Of a stretch of 64,000 nucleotides of DNA, positions 150 through 40,956 are shown piece by piece. Made by a program: the position numbers and the translations under genes. The DNA is from an uncultured bacterium (lineage in GTDB: Bacteria > Krumholzibacteriota > Krumholzibacteriia > LZORAL124-64-63): positions 96,001 to 160,000 of the forward strand of contig CAVSZB010000008.1 of assembly GCA_963732385.1 (NCBI GenBank), in the 5' to 3' direction. The notes under the pieces are model-generated. The model was not told where the DNA came from, made no database searches, and was given only the letters and a program-made list of their open reading frames with translations. How positions within the stretch are numbered: the stretch's first letter is position 1; the number at the start of each line of letters is the position of its first letter.

Positions 150-383
150 TAGCACGGCCTCGCCTTTGGGGGAGGGGACCCGGCGAGGGCAGCAACCGGC
201 GTGCCGGGTGGGTGGGGTTCGTTCGTCCGGCGGTGCGCTGGCTGTTACCGCCGCGGGCTCCGACTCAAGCATCCGCGCAAAACATCAAATCACGGCACGA
301 TCGGGCACGATACGCCATTCCTTGGCCATACCGCGGCGTGCTACGATGCGTTGCCGATGATGTCATCACACGGGAGGTCGGGG

Positions 384-1184
384 ATGAAACTGGGCCTGGA
401 GGGCCGGGTAGCCCTAGTCACCGCCGCTTCGCGCGGTTTCGGTCGTTCGGTTGCCCTGGAATTGGCCGGAGAGGGGGCCCACGTGGCGCTGTGCGCCCGT
501 GGGGCCGAGGATCTGGAGCGGACCCGGGCCGAAGTTCAGGCCGTGGCCAGGGACGGCGTCCGCCTGCTGGCTCGGCCGTGCGACATGACCGATGGTCCGG
601 CCGTGGAGCGCTTCGTGGCCGAGGTCACGCGTGAACTCGGCCCGATCGACGCGCTGCTCGTGAACGCTGGCGGGCCGCCGGCCGGTGGATTTTTCACGAC
701 CGGCCTCGATCAGTGGGAGGCGGCCTACCGGCTGAACCTCGAGAGCGCGGTGCGTCTCTGTAGTCTGGTGCTGCCCGGCATGATGGAGCGCGGTTGGGGC
801 CGGATCGTGCAGATCACCTCCGTGGCGCAGAAACAGCCGGTAGACAACCTGGTGCTGTCCAACGTGATCCGGCCCGCGGTGCACGCCCTGACCCGCTGCC
901 TGGCGGTGGAGGCGGCCCCGCGCGGCGTTACGGTCAACAGTGTCGCGCCAGGATTCCATCTCACGAGCGCCGTGGAGCGCCTGGTCAGGCATAAACTCGC
1001 TCAGGGAGCCGCCTCCTCCCGCGAGGAGGTTCTGGCCGCCTGGGAGCAGGAAATCCCGGCGGGCCGACTCGGTCGTGCGGAGGAACTGGCGGCCCTGATC
1101 GTCTTCCTGATGTCGGAGCGGGCCGGCTATGTGACCGGACAGTGTCTGGTGGCGGACGGGGGCTGGGTCCGATCGACGTTCTGA
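384..1184 (+). CDS. Short-chain dehydrogenase/reductase (FabG-like SDR)
   Basis: VALVTAASRGFG Rossmann motif, NAGGPP, C-terminal GYVTGQ..DGG; GGGAGG RBS before ATG 384. Confidence 0.9.
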   Translation: MKLGLEGRVALVTAASRGFGRSVALELAGEGAHVALCARGAEDLERTRAEVQAVARDGVRLLARPCDMTDGPAVERFVAEVTRELGPIDALLVNAGGPPAGGFFTTGLDQWEAAYRLNLESAVRLCSLVLPGMMERGWGRIVQITSVAQKQPVDNLVLSNVIRPAVHALTRCLAVEAAPRGVTVNSVAPGFHLTSAVERLVRHKLAQGAASSREEVLAAWEQEIPAGRLGRAEELAALIVFLMSERAGYVTGQCLVADGGWVRSTF

Positions 1185-1198
1185 TCGATCCCGCGGAC

Positions 1199-1227
1199 TT
1201 GACGTCGGGACGAATCGAGTATATATT
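1199..1227 (+). promoter_or_regulatory. Sigma70-type promoter for the 1278-1698 operon
   Basis: TTGACG (1199-1204), 17-nt spacer, TATATT (1222-1227), followed by a very AT-rich stretch (1228-1260) in a GC-rich genome. Confidence 0.7.
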
Positions 1228-1277
1228 CATAGTCAAACAGTATTTAATATTTAAAACGATGCGACGGTGGTGCGCCC

Positions 1278-1481
1278 ATGCTCGACATCCTGAAACTGCT
1301 GGCCTTCGTGGCGGCCTACTTCGTGGTGATGCGCTGGCTGCTGCCGCGGCTGGGCGTGCCCACCTGAATGTCCGACAGTTGCTCGGTCGGGGACCGGGCG
1401 CAGCCGAAGAACCGGAAAGGTGACGACGATTCCGCGGCGGAGGCTGACCAGGCGAAGCCGCGATTGCCGGGAGCGAGGTGA
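1278..1481 (+). CDS. Candidate small membrane selenoprotein (67 aa if UGA 1365-1367 is Sec; 29 aa if stop)
   Basis: MLDILKLLAFVAAYFVVMRWLLPRLGVPT-(TGA)-MSDSCSVGDRAQPKNRKGDDDSAAEADQAKPRLPGAR*; frame stays open to TGA 1479-1481, 7 nt before the next ATG; hairpin downstream of the UGA. Confidence 0.65.
1381..1399 (+). promoter_or_regulatory. Putative bacterial SECIS hairpin 1
   Basis: GCTCGGTC-GGG-GACCGGGC (8 bp, one G-U), G-containing loop beginning 21 nt after UGA 1365-1367. Confidence 0.55.
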
Positions 1482-1488
1482 CCCGAAG

Positions 1489-1698
1489 ATGCCGTTGTTC
1501 GAGTTCAACTGCCGTCGCTGCGGCAGGAAGTTCGAGGAGATCCTGAGTCTGGCCGAACTTGCGGCCGGACCGCCAGCCTGTCCCGCGTGTGGTGCGGACA
1601 AGGCGGTACGGGAGTTATCGCGGTTCGCCACGGGCGGGGGCGGGGCCCCGGCCGGGGGGAGCGGCGGCTGCGGGCCGAGCGGATTTTCGTGAGGTTGA
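1489..1698 (+). CDS. FmdB-family zinc-ribbon protein (CxxC...CPxC), candidate C-terminal Sec-Gly extension; ends at 1692 if the UGA is a stop
   Basis: MPLFEFNCRRCGRKFEE...CPACG...GGCGPSGFS then TGA GGT TGA (U-G-stop); GAGGTG RBS upstream. Confidence 0.85.
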
Positions 1699-1700
1699 GC

Positions 1701-1719
1701 GCACGGCCGGAGGCCGTGC
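1701..1719 (+). promoter_or_regulatory. Putative bacterial SECIS hairpin 2
   Basis: GCACGGCC-GGA-GGCCGTGC perfect 8-bp stem, loop beginning 16 nt after UGA 1690-1692; no U-tract and separate from the terminator at 1740. Confidence 0.55.
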
Positions 1720-1739
1720 CCACAGGGATCATTTTCGAA

Positions 1740-1772
1740 GACGACCCCGCGCAGGCGGGGTCGTCCTTTTTT
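1740..1772 (+). terminator. Rho-independent terminator between convergent genes
   Basis: GACGACCCCGC-GCAG-GCGGGGTCGTC followed by CTTTTTT. Confidence 0.85.
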
Positions 1773-2691
1773 ATCCCCCCGCGCGAAGCCGCGGCAGCCG
1801 CGGCTCGCGTTCGCCGTAGTGCTTGCCGAGCCAGAGGATGAGCGCACCGAGCAGCAGCCCGGCGATGACGTCCACCACATAGTGGTAGCGGCAGTAGACC
1901 GTGGCCGCGGCCAGCAGGACGAAAAGCGTGGTCAGCCAGGGACGGCTGCGTGGGGCGATCTTCCAGCCGTACCACCACGGGATGAGCGTGGCGGCCACGT
2001 GGCTCGACGGGAAAGCGGCCCCCAGGATGGCGCCGTGCGCGTGGATGTGGCGCATGACGCGGGTGAAGATCCAGCCGTCCACCGTCACCGGTCCGGCGCG
2101 GAAGTACTTCGGGCCCCAGACCGGAAAGAAGGTGTAGAGGGTGTAGCAGACGAGCATCGTCGCGCTTAGATCCCGCATGAAGGCGCGCAGAGCGGCCCAG
2201 CGCTCAGGCGGCGCGAGACGCCGCGAGGTCATGATCAAAACGAGCACGAGCGCGCTGAAGAGGTAGTAGGAGAAGTAGGCGAACTCGAACAGTTCGTGAA
2301 GCCAGGGCCACGGCCAGCGTTGCGACCAGACCAGGCTCAACTGCACGCCGAACAGCTTCTCCTCGAGTGCGATGAACCCCGGATCGAGGGAGTGCGCGAA
2401 GTCGTGGAAGACCAGCCCGAGCTGCGCCATCTCGCTGTAGAACAACGGGAACACGCACGGCAGGTAGATCTCGCCCATCAGGCGGACCGCGCCCAGGCGG
2501 CTTCCCCTGGCCAGCGGCGGCAGGAACCAGATGGCCAGCGCCAGGCCGGCGTGCAGCGCGAGGCGCAGCCAGGGGCCGGTCGGGGGCTGCCGGGAAATGA
2601 AGGGGTAGAGTCCGCTCGCGATCAGGTAGATGACCGCCCACCGGTCGAGGTCGCGCCGCTGCAGCGTCAGCCGGGCCAGTGGCAGGCGCAT
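1771..2691 (-). CDS. PAP2-superfamily membrane phosphatase/phosphotransferase, Aur1/inositol-phosphorylceramide-synthase-like
   Basis: Multiple TM helices, FPVWGP, AFPSSHVA and YHYVVDVIAG motifs; ATG overlaps the upstream stop (TGATG). Confidence 0.8.
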   Translation of the reverse strand: MRLPLARLTLQRRDLDRWAVIYLIASGLYPFISRQPPTGPWLRLALHAGLALAIWFLPPLARGSRLGAVRLMGEIYLPCVFPLFYSEMAQLGLVFHDFAHSLDPGFIALEEKLFGVQLSLVWSQRWPWPWLHELFEFAYFSYYLFSALVLVLIMTSRRLAPPERWAALRAFMRDLSATMLVCYTLYTFFPVWGPKYFRAGPVTVDGWIFTRVMRHIHAHGAILGAAFPSSHVAATLIPWWYGWKIAPRSRPWLTTLFVLLAAATVYCRYHYVVDVIAGLLLGALILWLGKHYGEREPRLPRLRAGG

Positions 2692-3677
2692 CAGAGCCAC
2701 CCGTTCTCGCGGTAGAAGGCCCAGGTTTCGCGGAAGCCGCGCGTGAGATCGCGTTCGGCGCCAAAGCCGGTCGTGATGCGCAGCCGGTTCCCGTCGCAGG
2801 TCCAGGCCGGCACGGTCACGCTGGCCAGGCGCTCCGGGCGCAGGAGCGGCGCCCGGGCTGCCGCAGCCCCGGCCAGCTGTGCCGCCAGCCGCAGCGCTCC
2901 CAGCGGCACCGGCACGGCCCGCACGCGCCGTCCCACCGCTTCGCGCAGGGCGCAGGCGATGTCGTCCCAGCCGTAGGCGCAGCCGTCGTCCACCTGGAAC
3001 AGGCCGCGTGCGTGCTCGGTTTCGAGGAGCGCCACCGCCGCGGCGGCACAGTCGCGTGCATCCACCAGGGAGAGCGCGGTCAGCCCGCCACGCAGGTTCA
3101 CGGTCCAGCCGCGTCGGGCCCAGGCGAACAGCGGCAGGAAGGCGGTGTCGCGAGGGCCGTACAGGGCGGGGGGGCGCAGGATGGACCAGCGGAACGGCAG
3201 GTCGGGTGTGAGGAGCTGCTCCCCCGCCAGCTTCGATCGGCCGTAAGCGCTCACCGGCGTCGGTGCGTCATCCTCCCGGCGCGGGCGGTCAGGGCGGGAC
3301 GGTCCGCCGGCGGCCAGGCTCGAAACCAGGACGAACGCGCGCAACTGGGGGGCGGCCGCGGCGGCCGTTATCAGACGGCGAGTCGGCGTCACGTTGCCGT
3401 CGAAGTAGGCCGTCTCGTTCCGCGCGCTCACCACACCGGCGCAATGGATGACGGCGCGGGCGTCAGCGAGCAGCCGCGTGGTCCCCTCCGCGCTCTCGCC
3501 CGGCAGGACTGTGCGCACCGGTTTGCCCTGCAGCCAGCGCAGATCGCTGGTGGGGCGGACGGCCGCGTGTACCTGCCACCCGCGCGCCAGCAGCGTGTCG
3601 ACGATGTGGCTGCCGAGAAAGCCGGTGGCCCCCGTCACCACCGCGAGGGGGCGGCCGGCGTTGGGTGTCGATGTCAT
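2691..3677 (-). CDS. NAD-dependent epimerase/dehydratase (extended SDR), likely ceramide reductase (CerR-like)
   Basis: VTGATGFLG, YGRSK catalytic motif, RPPALYGP; translationally coupled within the spt operon. Confidence 0.8.
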   Translation of the reverse strand: MTSTPNAGRPLAVVTGATGFLGSHIVDTLLARGWQVHAAVRPTSDLRWLQGKPVRTVLPGESAEGTTRLLADARAVIHCAGVVSARNETAYFDGNVTPTRRLITAAAAAPQLRAFVLVSSLAAGGPSRPDRPRREDDAPTPVSAYGRSKLAGEQLLTPDLPFRWSILRPPALYGPRDTAFLPLFAWARRGWTVNLRGGLTALSLVDARDCAAAAVALLETEHARGLFQVDDGCAYGWDDIACALREAVGRRVRAVPVPLGALRLAAQLAGAAAARAPLLRPERLASVTVPAWTCDGNRLRITTGFGAERDLTRGFRETWAFYRENGWL

Positions 3678-4801
3678 GTCAGGGGCTTGTCATAGATCCG
3701 ATAGGTGCGGTACACCCTCGCGCCCATCCCTTCGAGGATGCGGTTCATCGATCGGTTGTCCTCGAGGATCCAGGAGCACTCGCCAGCCCGGATACCCTGC
3801 CGGAAGCCGGCCTCGAAGGTGCGGAAGATCATCACCGCGTCCACGCCGCGGCCGCGGTACTCCGGCAGTACGCCCAGCAGCAGGGTGCGTGCGTAGTCGA
3901 TCCGGCGCTTCTTCAGCAGGAAGGTGAGCCAGCCCAGCGGCAGCAGATGGCCGCGCAACGGCTGTGTGGCCTGGTTGAAGTCGGGAATCGTCAGGCTGAA
4001 GCCGATCGGCTTGCCGTCCGCCTCGGCGATCAGCATGAAGTCGGGGGAGACCATCTTCTTCATGTCCTTCGCGGCGTAGGCGAACTCCGCGTCGTCCATC
4101 GGGATGAAGCCCCAGTTCTTCGACCAGGCGGCGTTGTACAGCGTCCGCACCGTGGCCGCCTCCTCGGCGAAACGGCTCATGTCCATGGGGCGGACCGTGA
4201 ACGTGGCGCCGGCCAGCAGCGGCTTCATGGCATCCTGCAGGCGGTCGGGGATGCGCCCGTCGGTCGCGTCCATCCGCCAGGCCCACAGGTCGCGTGACTT
4301 CGCCAGGCCGAACGCCGCGAACTGCCCCTCGTACCAGCGCGGGTTGTATGGCATGCCGATGACCGGTCGGCCGAAGTCGCCGTCGACGAGCAGGCCGAGG
4401 TAGTCGTGGTTGGTCGTGAAGGAGCAGGGGCCGCGCATGACGGCCATGCCGTGTTCCTTCAGCCAGGCCGCCGCGGTCTGCAGCAGTTCGCGCGCGAGCG
4501 CGGGGTCGTCGGGGCATTCGTAGAAGCCGAAGAAGCCGCTCTGCTCGCCGGTGTGCCGGTTGTGGTAGCTGTCCACGCAGGCGGCCACCCGCGCGACCGG
4601 CCGGCCGGCCTCGTCGCGGGCGACCCAGAGCGCGGTCTGGGCGTGCGTGAAGAACGGGTTGTGCCCCTGATCGAAGAAGCGGCGCAGGTCGCCGAGCAGC
4701 GGGAAGACGTGGTTGGGGTCCCCGGCGTAGATGCTGTATGGCACCTTCAGGAACGCTTCGAGGTCCCGCTTGTCCTGGACGGGGCGGATCTTGGCCGGCA
4801 T
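3674..4801 (-). CDS. GNAT-family N-acyltransferase, bacterial ceramide synthase (bCerS-like)
   Basis: Starts MPAKIRPV at 4801; GFFGFYE, MPYNP, AWSKNWGFIP, LGVLPEYRGRG, ECSWILEDN motifs; directly downstream of spt. Confidence 0.8.
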   Translation of the reverse strand: MPAKIRPVQDKRDLEAFLKVPYSIYAGDPNHVFPLLGDLRRFFDQGHNPFFTHAQTALWVARDEAGRPVARVAACVDSYHNRHTGEQSGFFGFYECPDDPALARELLQTAAAWLKEHGMAVMRGPCSFTTNHDYLGLLVDGDFGRPVIGMPYNPRWYEGQFAAFGLAKSRDLWAWRMDATDGRIPDRLQDAMKPLLAGATFTVRPMDMSRFAEEAATVRTLYNAAWSKNWGFIPMDDAEFAYAAKDMKKMVSPDFMLIAEADGKPIGFSLTIPDFNQATQPLRGHLLPLGWLTFLLKKRRIDYARTLLLGVLPEYRGRGVDAVMIFRTFEAGFRQGIRAGECSWILEDNRSMNRILEGMGARVYRTYRIYDKPLT

Positions 4802-4875: not shown

Positions 4876-6060
4876 TCAGGAGATCACGCCGAGTTCCCTG
4901 CCTACCTTGACCATCCGGTCCATGGCGAGATGGACCTGATCTTCGGTGTGGGTGGCCATGAGGCTGAGGCGGATCAGCGCGTTGCCCTTCTCGACCGCAG
5001 GAGAGATGACGGAGTTGACGAAAACCCCTTCCTCGAACAGCCGGCGGCACATCTGGAAGGCGACGACATCCTCGCCGACCACGGCCGGGATGATCGGGGT
5101 CTGCGAGGGGCCGGTGTCGAAGCCGGCCTCCTGCAGGCGTTCGAGCATGATGCGCGTGTTGCGCCACAGCGCCGCGCCGCGCCACTCCTCCTCGATCATC
5201 ACGTCGACGGCGGTCGACACCGCGGCCACCGAGGCGGGCGGCATGCTGGCCGAGAAAATCAGCGAGCGCGCCATGTGCTGGATGAAATGGACCGTTTCGG
5301 CGTCCGAGGCGATGAACCCGCCCACGGAGGCGAGCGACTTGCTGAAGGTGCCCATGATGAGGTGGACCTTGTCGGTCAGGCCGAAGTGGTTGGCGGTGCC
5401 GCGTCCCTGCGTGCCGAGCACGCCGATCCCGTGCGCGTCGTCGACCATGACGACCGCGGAGTGCTTTTCCGCCATGCGCACGATGCCGGGCAGGTCGGCG
5501 ATGTCGCCGTGCATCGAGAAGACGCCGTCCACCACGATCAGCTTGCCGTTGTCGTCGCAGGCGGCCAGGGTCTTGTCGAGGGCGACCATGTCGTTGTGCA
5601 GGTACTTGCGCGTCGTGCCGAAGGAGAGGCGGCAGCCGTCGATGATCGATGCGTGGTCCACGCGGTCGACGATCACGCTGTCGCTGCGCCCCACCAGGGA
5701 GTGGATCACGCCGAGGTTCACCATCATGCCGGTCGAGAAGACGACAGCCGCCTCCTTCCCGACGAGTCGGGCGAGTTTCTCTTCCAGTTCGACGTGGATA
5801 TCGAGGGTGCCGTTCAGGAAGCGCGAACCGGCGCAGCCGCTGCCGTACTTGTCGATGGCCCGTTTTGCGGCCTCCTTGACCCGCGGGTGGTTCGTCAGGC
5901 CGAGGTAGTTGTTGCTCCCCAGCATGATGACTTCGCGCCCGCCGATCCGGACCAGATTCTCCTGGGCGGACTCGATCACCCGGAAATAGGGGTACAGGCC
6001 GGACTTCTGCAGTTCCCTGGCCTGTTGGAAATTCCGGACTTTGTCGAGCAGGCCCATCAT
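4876..6060 (-). CDS. spt: Serine palmitoyltransferase (class II PLP alpha-oxoamine synthase)
   Basis: GSNNYLGL, GSRFLNGT, DHASIIDG, DDAH and GTFSKS (PLP Lys); operon context favours Spt over BioF/Kbl. Confidence 0.8.
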   Translation of the reverse strand: MMGLLDKVRNFQQARELQKSGLYPYFRVIESAQENLVRIGGREVIMLGSNNYLGLTNHPRVKEAAKRAIDKYGSGCAGSRFLNGTLDIHVELEEKLARLVGKEAAVVFSTGMMVNLGVIHSLVGRSDSVIVDRVDHASIIDGCRLSFGTTRKYLHNDMVALDKTLAACDDNGKLIVVDGVFSMHGDIADLPGIVRMAEKHSAVVMVDDAHGIGVLGTQGRGTANHFGLTDKVHLIMGTFSKSLASVGGFIASDAETVHFIQHMARSLIFSASMPPASVAAVSTAVDVMIEEEWRGAALWRNTRIMLERLQEAGFDTGPSQTPIIPAVVGEDVVAFQMCRRLFEEGVFVNSVISPAVEKGNALIRLSLMATHTEDQVHLAMDRMVKVGRELGVIS

Positions 6061-6154: not shown

Positions 6155-7645
6155 TTACCAGCCCTTTTCCGGCTCCTCCAGCACCTCGGCCTCGAAGACC
6201 GCGAACCGGGTGTCGGCACGCCAGCTGTCGGGCGGCAGGCCGGCCTTGAGCGCCAGGTGACGCAGGGTTGTTTCGCGGTCCCACCCCTGCTCGGGCGCCA
6301 CCTGGGGCAGGAAGACTGCCCGCGCCCGCCCCTTCGACAGCACGATGCCGTGCCGACCGATCACGATCTCCCCGGGGCCGGCCACGTCGCGCAGCGGGGT
6401 CAGCGCCGACACCTCCACCTGCAGGCCGGCGGTCTCCTCCGGCCCGACCGGGGGGAACCGGGGGTCGCGGGAGGCGGCTGCCGCGGCATTTTCCGCCACC
6501 GCCTCGGCGAGGGGGGCGATGCCCTCGATATAGCCGATGCAGCCGCGCAGCTCCCCGCGACGGGTCAGGGTGACGAACGCGCCGCGGGGAACGGCCAGGC
6601 GCGGCGAGAGCGCCAACCCGAGCCGGTCGGCCACGACACGCGGCGTGGGCGGCGGGATCCCGGCGGCGGTCGCTTCCACCACTGCGCGGGCGAGCGCGAG
6701 CAGGAGACGGCGCTCGTCGGCGTCGAGCGGAGCGGCGGGATCGACCGCGGCGTCGGCGCGCGGGGTCGGGGTGGCGTCGATCGACGCGGGAAGACGCAGG
6801 ATCAGGCCGGCGTAGCTCACGGAAAGCGTGTAGTCGCGGTCGCGGTCGCCGCTGCGCGCGTAGGTCACGAACTCGCCGGTCAGGGCGGTCGGCAAAGGGG
6901 CGGTGAGGGCGAGTGCGGCGGCATCGAGCCCGCACATGGTGATGCCGGTCCGTTCCCGGTAGGCGAGCAGGCCGTCGGGATCTCGCGCGAGGATGAGTTC
7001 CCACGCCCCACGGTCGAGCGCCTCGACCTGCTCCGGCACGAGCTCGTGGAACGGCGCGTAACCGTAAGATTCACCGTAGTGAGTGAAGTCGGAACTGACG
7101 AGGAAGAGGCTGCGGCCGTCGCACCAGGGCGCCAGCGCCGCGGCGGTGCGTCGGCGGGAGTCGGGGTCGAGCGGCGGCACGAGCAGCGGGACGAGCCGCA
7201 ACAGCCCGCCGAAGATGGTCTGCAAAAACGGCAGCTGGATCTCCTCGGCGTGTTCCGCCGCGTGGGCCGTCTCGACGCTGGTGAACGCCTCGTCGGCCAG
7301 CAGACGCGCCGCCACCTCCCGGTCCACCGCAACCTCGCCCAAAGGGGTGGCGTAGGCAGCGAACCCCGAAACCGACACCTTCCGCAGGCGGGTCCGGTGG
7401 CTCGGCGCGAGTAGGAAAACGCGGTCGTAACGCCAGGGCGCCAGCCGCCGGTACACCTGCCCCGCCGCCGGACCGCTGTAGGTGTAGCCGGCGTGCGGGA
7501 CGATCGCCAGCACGGGGCGCTCGGTCGCGGCGTTTGCCGCGGGCGCCCCGGGCGTTGCGAGGAAGCCGCGCACCGCGGCGTCCAGTTCCGCGGGGGCGGC
7601 CGGATACCAGGTTCCTGCGAGCACGGGGGCACGAATCTTGAGCAT
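6155..7645 (-). CDS. Fused AmmeMemoRadiSam protein B (MEMO1-like) and protein A (AMMECR1 domain)
   Basis: N-terminal PHAGYTYSG, EHAEEIQLPFLQ, SSDFTHYG, TMCG; C-terminal GAFVTL...LRGCIG, DPRFPP, FLPQVA. Confidence 0.9.
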   Translation of the reverse strand: MLKIRAPVLAGTWYPAAPAELDAAVRGFLATPGAPAANAATERPVLAIVPHAGYTYSGPAAGQVYRRLAPWRYDRVFLLAPSHRTRLRKVSVSGFAAYATPLGEVAVDREVAARLLADEAFTSVETAHAAEHAEEIQLPFLQTIFGGLLRLVPLLVPPLDPDSRRRTAAALAPWCDGRSLFLVSSDFTHYGESYGYAPFHELVPEQVEALDRGAWELILARDPDGLLAYRERTGITMCGLDAAALALTAPLPTALTGEFVTYARSGDRDRDYTLSVSYAGLILRLPASIDATPTPRADAAVDPAAPLDADERRLLLALARAVVEATAAGIPPPTPRVVADRLGLALSPRLAVPRGAFVTLTRRGELRGCIGYIEGIAPLAEAVAENAAAAASRDPRFPPVGPEETAGLQVEVSALTPLRDVAGPGEIVIGRHGIVLSKGRARAVFLPQVAPEQGWDRETTLRHLALKAGLPPDSWRADTRFAVFEAEVLEEPEKGW

Positions 7646-40320: not shown

Positions 40321-40956
40321 GTGGGCATGGCGGAGATCAAGCAGGGGTTCCGCGCGGTGGTGCGTCCTCTCGTGCATGCGCTCGACCGGCTCGGTGTTTC
40401 GCCGCTCGGCGTGACCCTCGCCGGCCTCGCGCTCAGCGCGGCGGCCGCCGTGGTGATCGCCGGCGGGCGGCTGCGGCTGGGGGCGTTGCTGCTGACGCTC
40501 GGCGCCGGGCTCGACATGGTCGACGGCGACCTGGCGCGCCTGCAGGGGCGCGCGTCGAAGCAGGGCGCGTTCCTCGATTCCAACCTCGACCGTCTGGCCG
40601 AGGCGTTCGTCTTCCTGGGGCTGCTCTGGTTCTACCTCACCGCCCTGCCGCAGCCCCGCCCGATCACCGCGATGCTGGCCATGGCCGCGGTCGTCGGCTC
40701 GCTCACGACCAGTTACGCCCGGGCGCGCGCCGAGGGACTCGGCACGACCTGCGGTGAGGGTATTTTCCAGCGGCCCGAGCGCATGGTTCTCCTGCTCGTG
40801 GGACTGCTGCTGGGCTGGAGAGGGCTGGAGTGGGTCATCGGGGCTCTGGCCGTGCTCAGCCTGGCCACGACGGTGCAGCGCATCATCCACGTCAGTCGTA
40901 AGCTTGCGGTCGAGGCGCCGGCCGACCGACGCGGGCGGGGGAGGCGAAAGTCATGA
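40321..40956 (+). CDS. CDP-alcohol phosphatidyltransferase (PgsA/PIP-synthase-like)
   Basis: DMVDGDLAR...GAFLDSNLDR, SYARARAE, RPER. Confidence 0.9.
   Translation: MGMAEIKQGFRAVVRPLVHALDRLGVSPLGVTLAGLALSAAAAVVIAGGRLRLGALLLTLGAGLDMVDGDLARLQGRASKQGAFLDSNLDRLAEAFVFLGLLWFYLTALPQPRPITAMLAMAAVVGSLTTSYARARAEGLGTTCGEGIFQRPERMVLLLVGLLLGWRGLEWVIGALAVLSLATTVQRIIHVSRKLAVEAPADRRGRGRRKS

Follow-up and report, generated by a model that had tools for sequence, protein, structure and literature searches.

The window, that is, the whole stretch of 64,000 nucleotides that was analysed, carries on its minus strand a reading frame at 1771-2691 that is open without internal stops and translates into a protein of 306 aa with eight predicted membrane helices. 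In Pfam the protein scored 59 bits against PAP2_3 (cut-off 27), compared with 37.5 bits against PAP2 and 27 bits against PAP2_C, so PAP2_3 prevailed over PAP2 in the profile comparison, and it is the sole PAP2_3 match in the host genome, which is 95.8% complete. It is annotated here as an Aur1-like PAP2_3 membrane protein and a candidate phosphosphingolipid synthase.

Three genes lie upstream on the same strand. The outermost (4876-6060) encodes a serine palmitoyltransferase (SPT)-like protein, with NF047600 as its top NCBIfam family (580 bits, below the cut-off of 640) and SPT structures as its top PDB matches (E 3e-130); by both comparisons it fits SPT better than BioF/Kbl, and two further paralogues, at 37%, are sited elsewhere. 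The next gene (3674-4801) encodes a GNAT-fold protein with 37% identity to E. coli YghO, a kind of GNAT protein that we take to be of the bCerS type, and the third (2691-3677) encodes an extended SDR of the NAD-dependent epimerase family. For these two, the GNAT and epimerase families and the position fit bCerS and CerR at the family level only, and they are treated as a putative ceramide synthase (cerS-like) and a putative ceramide reductase (cerR-like). The end of cerS and the beginning of the reductase gene have 4 bases in common (3674-3677), and the ATG of the PAP2_3 gene at 2691 shares one base with the TGA of the reductase gene. The PAP2_3 reading frame thus closes a compact spt-cerS-cerR-like operon. 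A GC-rich hairpin with a T run at 1740-1770, scored on the plus strand, lies between convergent genes directly after the PAP2_3 stop; it is a likely terminator and presumably ends the minus-strand operon. Four runs of one freshwater-sediment RNA study yielded a relative of the operon, mostly at 90-95% identity, as contigs that cross the spt-cerS, cerS-cerR, and cerR-PAP2 junctions, with DNA carry-over possible in these runs. In close relatives, spt is directly preceded by a gene for a fused AmmeMemoRadiSam B and A protein (6155-7645, minus strand, in the window); in some of them cstA separates the two genes.

Linkage to ceramide genes

The order spt-cerS-cerR-PAP2 was found in 9 of 12 close loci, the other three being cut by contig ends. 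Among 201 genomes of the phylum, the PAP2_3 gene was detected in 89 and cerS in 87, with both in 85 and neither in 110; a profile search of the 201 genomes recovered full-length members in the same genome set. The PAP2_3 gene was adjacent to cerS (≤1.5 kb, one strand) in 79 of the 85 genomes having both, and of the six unlinked genomes, four are interrupted by a contig end between the two genes and one has paralogues only. These genomes are kin, since 80 of the carriers belong to one family, the host's, in which the gene is present in 80 of 86 genomes. The identical four-gene order was found in all eight of eight genomes of two other families at 29-36% identity. The only operon carrier of family f8 (G027, locus L017) has a PAP2_3 protein of a different subgroup. 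Two phylum genomes (G088 and G175) have cerS without the PAP2_3 gene; their cerS-like genes (loci L022 and L023) have neither spt nor a PAP2_3 gene nearby, and the one at L023 is flanked by genes for a YegS-like lipid kinase, a CdsA-like cytidylyltransferase, and a zinc dehydrogenase.

For metagenomes, the best 80 of 589 confirmed loci were examined, i.e., those nearest the query, including a few duplicates and with taxa not given; 71 of the 80 were distant (26-43% identity). The GC content of the metagenome loci was 0.30-0.74. Within 3.6 kb upstream and 1.5 kb downstream, spt or cerS was found in 46 of the 71 distant loci. Among the distant loci with adequate flank, spt or cerS stood beside the PAP2_3 gene in 36 of 44, and neither was nearby in the remaining 8. 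The observed orders were spt-cerS-cerR-PAP, spt-cerR-PAP with a convergent cerS, PAP-cerS, cerS-PAP, and cerR-spt-cerS-PAP. Almost everywhere, the PAP2_3 gene has the CerR-like reductase gene next to it; among 48 long loci, the PAP2_3 gene was directly beside cerS with no reductase between in eight PAP-cerS and two cerS-PAP arrangements. The coupling to the ceramide genes that the sequence-only reading had claimed from one locus therefore recurs in the synteny survey with spt and is widespread. In a plasmid collection, 47 records matched cerS and none matched the 306-aa protein; like genomes G088 and G175, this speaks against the gene being a universal companion of cerS. No relative of the protein was found among viral contigs. 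An apparent reductase-PAP2 fusion (P0003) was rejected because its sequence is garbled by frameshifts.

The three upstream genes would represent the same core of three enzymes as the Spt/bCerS/CerR pathway of Caulobacter (PMC11087976 and PMC11324152). The Caulobacter head groups are added by the Cpg enzymes, a kinase, nucleotidyltransferases, and a CDP-alcohol transferase, from which the PAP2_3 operon differs. The core pathway to bacterial ceramide is known, and head-group enzymes are known for a few lineages only.

At least 11 genomes of the family also carry a paralogue cassette (loci L024-L033 and L154; e.g., L027, 3105-7611) in which a PAP2_3 paralogue sits beside a CerR-like reductase, together with an alpha/beta hydrolase, an HpnA-like epimerase, and a CPBP protease; neither spt nor cerS lies close to it. 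The cassette perhaps remodels a sphingolipid or another amide lipid; its lack of spt and cerS counts against the reading as a ceramide head-group transferase. In a quick tree, midpoint-rooted and without BT_1522 or Aur1, operon members, paralogue cassettes, and Bacteroidales members were subgroups of one family.

Fold, motifs, and phosphatase controls

Family members were compared in an alignment (A2, n = 141) made of the 306-aa protein, 10 locus proteins, and 130 of 150 listed matches, from which fragments, the top match P0002, and the frameshifted fusion P0003 were excluded. A single-sequence PDB search was discarded, as it gave just a weak PgpB match (E 0.035) and profiles were needed. The A2 profile matched yeast Aur1 best (E 4.6e-10, positions 12-287 of 312); PgpB and LpxE ranked below it and matched only the C-terminal 60-80 positions, and no SMS or SMSr was among the matches at E ≤1. 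The structure of the 306-aa protein was predicted with a pLDDT of 92.4 and a pTM of 0.90. Using this model, Foldseek placed Aur1 first (E 8e-6, TM 0.62), and VIA-align gave Z 20.8 for Aur1 (rmsd 3.5 over 262 residues, model residues 11-300), against Z 15.7 over 163 residues for LpxE and Z 12.8 over 201 residues for SMSr. The three additional helices at the N-terminus are matched by Aur1 and not by LpxE or PgpB.

The closest fold match is thus the catalytic subunit of the IPC synthase of yeast (PDB 9vj3, 9vj4, and 9ivc; PMC13133130). The two proteins share the full-length fold, the spacing of the H-H-D triad, an invariant equivalent of S253, a Thr before the C3 His, and a degenerate C1; they differ in their low identity (14-18%), in the absence of a Kei1-like partner from the bacterial operon, and in that the auxiliary residues H157 and H293 of Aur1 are Tyr in the bacterial protein. 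In the A2 alignment, Y143 pairs with H157, and Y269 stands at the H293 position. Aur1 residues S253, H255, H294, and D298 are shown in PMC13133130 to be catalytic or auxiliary, and H157Y reduces the aureobasidin sensitivity of Aur1. Given the Tyr at the H157 position, aureobasidin is therefore predicted to inhibit the bacterial enzyme poorly.

With the SMS family (SMSr, PDB 8ijq) the protein shares the LPT fold, the triad, and a chemistry with ceramide as acceptor, but the match is clearly weaker (TM 0.39), as is that to PAP2_C. By the difference in Z between the two structure comparisons, the modelled protein is supported as Aur1-like rather than SMS-like, which refines the earlier pairing "Aur1 and sphingomyelin-synthase-type". 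The phosphatases PgpB (5jki/5jwy) and LpxE (6ebu) share the core fold, the C2 His, and the C3 HxxxD, and their alignment spans only about residues 100-300 of the 306-aa protein; the family differs from them in lacking KxxxxxxRP and the C3 Arg and in its three added N-terminal helices.

The two motifs reported in the sequence-only reading are present. AFPSSH (C2) occupies residues 226-231 (window 1999-2016, minus strand), with S229 and H231 aligned to S253 and H255 of Aur1, and YHYVVD occupies residues 269-274 (window 1887-1870) within a C3 region, T264..H270xxxD274 (1870-1902, minus strand), in which H270 and D274 align to H294 and D298 and a Thr replaces the phosphatase Arg. Where phosphatases have the C1 K..RP, the protein has a degenerate stretch, Y186..G193-P194 (2110-2136, minus strand). 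Residues P228, S229, H231, H270, and D274 are invariant in all 141 aligned sequences, and the His-His spacing of 39 residues equals that of Aur1 H255/H294. PSxH..HxxxD at the observed spacing arose in 32 of 100,000 shuffles.

In PAP2 phosphatases, Lys and Arg of C1 and the Arg of C3 bind the phosphate monoester. KxxxxxxRP was found in none of the 141 family members, the 306-aa protein included, which agrees with the earlier observation of no such domain-1 motif. Instead of the phosphatase C3 pattern SRxxxxxHxxxD, the 306-aa protein has ATVYCRYHYVVD, with Thr for Arg. Across the alignment, the position six residues ahead of the C3 His held Arg once and Thr in 119 of 141, as in Aur1. As controls, 11 ordinary PAP2 proteins of the same phylum were used, whose matches to the A2 profile are confined to its C-terminal part and which have no ceramide gene within the 3-6.5 kb around each. 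All 11 retain KxxxxxxRP and the C3 Arg, and 8 of the 11 have PSSH. AFPSSH was therefore ruled out as a diagnostic motif, and what sets the family apart from phosphatases is that the C1 Lys/Arg and the C3 Arg have been lost. The motif pattern formerly considered typical of Aur1/SMS-type transferases stands for the lost basic residues and falls for PSSH itself. The assignment as Aur1/IPC-synthase-like was borne out by the profile, fold, and motif controls.

BT_1522 and members in Bacteroidota

A proven Aur1-like PI-dihydroceramide synthase, BT_1522, has been described in Bacteroides thetaiotaomicron (PMC9246714 and PMC8791184). It resembles the 306-aa protein in being bacterial, Aur1-like, and about 300 aa long, with a PAP2_3 region. 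Orthology was rejected, as the 306-aa protein scored 25.2 bits on the BT_1522 model (NF052609), against a cut-off of 480. Across the family this model gave weak matches in 32 of 141 members (best E 3e-10), fewer than the undecaprenyl-diphosphate phosphatase model (weak matches in 36 of 141). By sequence comparison, the PAP2_3 family is a separate Aur1-like family, distinct from BT_1522. BT_1522 sits in an inositol cluster, whereas members of the family sit in the ceramide operon or behind cerR. The host genome carries the matching donor set MIPS, PIPS, and PgpA without such clustering: the PIPS-like gene is 37.6 kb away, and MIPS and PgpA are on contig C7. The chemistry is already known from Aur1 and BT_1522, so the system is not new in kind. 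The earlier label of a "eukaryote-style" enzyme holds in that the protein is Aur1-like; BT_1522 is a bacterial precedent, though of a different family. No publications on the cerR-linked PAP2_3 family were found in a search that reached few subscription journals and may have overlooked a recent report on the ethanolamine phosphoceramide (EPC) synthase of Bacteroides. None of the publications found reported a tested activity for any member.

Members of the family also occur behind cerR-like genes in Bacteroidota. At metagenome locus L103 a cerR-like gene is followed by a family member, and relatives are named as Prevotella sp. proteins. In Bacteroides finegoldii, a gene for an NAD(P)-dependent oxidoreductase is followed, with a 10-base overlap, by a PAP2 gene (WP_237923849.1), the pair lying between rnr and dusB; the PAP2 protein scored 243 bits on the A2 profile and has PSSH, ATVYIQAHYVID, and no C1. 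The same oxidoreductase-PAP2 pair is present in Prevotella sp. oral taxon 299. According to the respective papers, deletion of BT_1522 abolishes PI-DHC and not PE-DHC (PMC9246714), the BT1522 mutant retains trace IPC, B. fragilis lacks BT1522-1526, and BLAST with the Drosophila enzyme found no EPC synthase (PMC8791184). PE-DHC is described as produced by all Bacteroides tested (PMC10191378 and PMC10056535), with ethanolamine phosphoceramide as the most abundant sphingolipid of the species tested (PMC10056535) and PE-DHC as 26% of the negative-mode signal in B. fragilis (PMC12132519). PMC12132519 also reports that enzymes of the PLD family act on other phospho-ceramides, which makes them an alternative class of enzyme, and a bioRxiv paper (2023.05.23.541633) gives cerS and cerR of B. 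fragilis as BF9343_4218 and BF9343_4240. From its sequence and position, the gene behind the cerR-like gene in Bacteroides finegoldii and Prevotella is a candidate EPC synthase, and this single locus is of interest for the ethanolamine-phosphoceramide question. Tentatively, and with somewhat less than balanced confidence, the family could provide bacterial ceramide synthesis with a general fourth enzyme that uses whatever glycerophospholipid its host has. It would make IPC in these Krumholzibacteria, which lack pgsA and psd, and in Bacteroides and Prevotella the member directly behind cerR would be the EPC synthase and the source of the residual IPC of BT_1522 mutants. If so, it would be a second bacterial Aur1-like lineage alongside BT_1522.

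Proposed reaction, head-group donor, and alternatives

The 306-aa protein probably transfers a phospho-head group onto ceramide, a reading based on analogy with Aur1. The fold, triad, loss of basic residues, recurring linkage, and genome content support the bacterial phosphosphingolipid synthase that had been proposed. In this scheme, Spt, bCerS, and CerR would make (dihydro)ceramide, and the inner-membrane enzyme would move the phospho-head group to it from a glycerophospholipid, probably phosphatidylinositol (PI). By analogy, D274 would activate H270, which would attack the donor phosphate; diacylglycerol would leave, giving a phospho-inositol-histidine intermediate at H270 (ping-pong), and H231 would then activate the 1-OH of ceramide to yield inositol phosphoceramide. 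Counts of Lys and Arg (positive-inside) suggest that the N and C termini lie on the inner side of the membrane and the catalytic loops on the outer side. From these counts and the luminal loops of Aur1, a periplasmic orientation is predicted for the active-site loops, and the chemistry would take place on that side. CerR of Caulobacter is described as working at the periplasmic side (PMC11087976).

A PIP-synthase-like CDP-alcohol phosphotransferase is encoded at 40321-40956 (plus strand), outside the operon, and is the likely source of a PI donor. Its top PDB matches are PIP synthases (E 6e-26), and its NCBIfam scores (142-147 bits) are below the cut-offs. The gene sits between rsmI and tmk and is present in 195 of 201 phylum genomes and 82 of 86 of the host's family; MIPS is present in 181 of 201 and 77 of 86. 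Neither co-varies with the operon across the 201 genomes, and at its distance and with its near-ubiquity the PIP synthase was rejected as an operon-linked part. The host genome contains MIPS, the PIPS-like gene, and PgpA, by which B. thetaiotaomicron makes its PI; psd and pgsA were not found in it. In the host's family, psd was found in none of 86 genomes, and across the phylum in 4 of 201, the operon-bearing f8 genome G027 among them; pgsA (E ≤1e-15) turned up in none of the 86 genomes of the host's family and none of 9 in a second family rich in the operon, compared with 75 of 105 outside these two. This leaves PI as the one conserved donor that could be identified, and we consider it on balance the donor in the host, at a confidence just above the midpoint. 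The earlier suggestion that the gene at 40321-40956 supplies the donor accordingly finds no genomic coupling and is favoured by genome content. By family, pgsA was not found in f1, f3, and f6, nor psd in f1 and f6, with the PIPS-like gene and MIPS near-universal; from this gene content, membranes dominated by PI and poor in PG and PE are predicted. The membrane predicted for these uncultured Krumholzibacteria, mainly PI and inositol phosphoceramide, would be unusual and a possible lipid marker.

That the same transferase uses another donor here, such as a phospholipid with ethanolamine or an amino alcohol that comes from a CDP-alcohol pathway, is an unlikely sub-case. The host genome has two further CDP-alcohol transferases and unassigned PLD-family proteins as possible suppliers of other donors, one of the transferases (at L036) being presumably YnjF-like. 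An operon at 303-3059 of host contig C5 (L037) encodes a HisC/CobD-like PLP enzyme, a CDP-alcohol phosphotransferase, and an NTP transferase, which together might yield an amino-alcohol phospholipid or provide ceramide with a second head group. Family members in Bacteroides live in PE-rich cells, and the sole f8 operon genome also has psd. The L037 transferase, however, is present in 34 of 91 family genomes, against 80 of 86 for the operon gene, 82 of 86 for the PIPS-like gene, and 77 of 86 for MIPS, and the lack of psd and pgsA in the host's family also argues for PI.

A hydrolase acting in sphingolipid turnover, either a lipid-phosphate phosphatase (on ceramide-1-phosphate, a sphingoid phosphate, or a PIP-type lipid) or a PLC-like enzyme, is less likely still. 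Phosphatases have the fold and triad in common with the family, members are named "membrane-associated phospholipid phosphatase" in databases and match phosphatase models weakly, and PE-PLC activity is described for SMSr (PMC11765627). Against this, the basic residues kept by all control phosphatases are missing, the extra helices align with Aur1 and not with LpxE/PgpB, the operon has no ceramide kinase, and PgpA is already available as a PIP phosphatase. We regard it as improbable, the least favoured of these alternatives, that the phospho group goes to another acceptor (lipid A or another amide lipid) or that the protein is mainly a membrane partner of the CerR-like reductase. LpxT is a PAP2-fold phosphotransferase to lipid A, and the reductase is the most constant neighbour, including in paralogue cassettes and in Bacteroidales without adjacent spt or cerS; several loci with the PAP2_3 gene beside cerS and no reductase between, the failure to find the full-length family in the 110 phylum genomes that have neither gene, and the invariant catalytic triad speak against this reading.

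Two small plus-strand reading frames lie beyond the hairpin, with a good sigma-70-like promoter match (TTGACG-17-TATATT, 1199-1227) ahead of them. The first (1278-1481) encodes a small membrane protein with no NCBIfam match that ends in LGVPT-TGA, with a conserved xSxxCSVGDR beyond the TGA; of 19 loci examined, the motif was found in 10, and the codon was TGA in all 10. The host genome has selA and tRNA-SeC, and from its sequence the frame is a candidate small selenoprotein. The second (1489-1698) encodes a zinc-ribbon protein (PF09723) ending in GFS-TGA-G-stop; a TGA stands there in 11 of 15 loci examined, followed by one or two residues and a second stop, and a C-terminal selenocysteine is possible.
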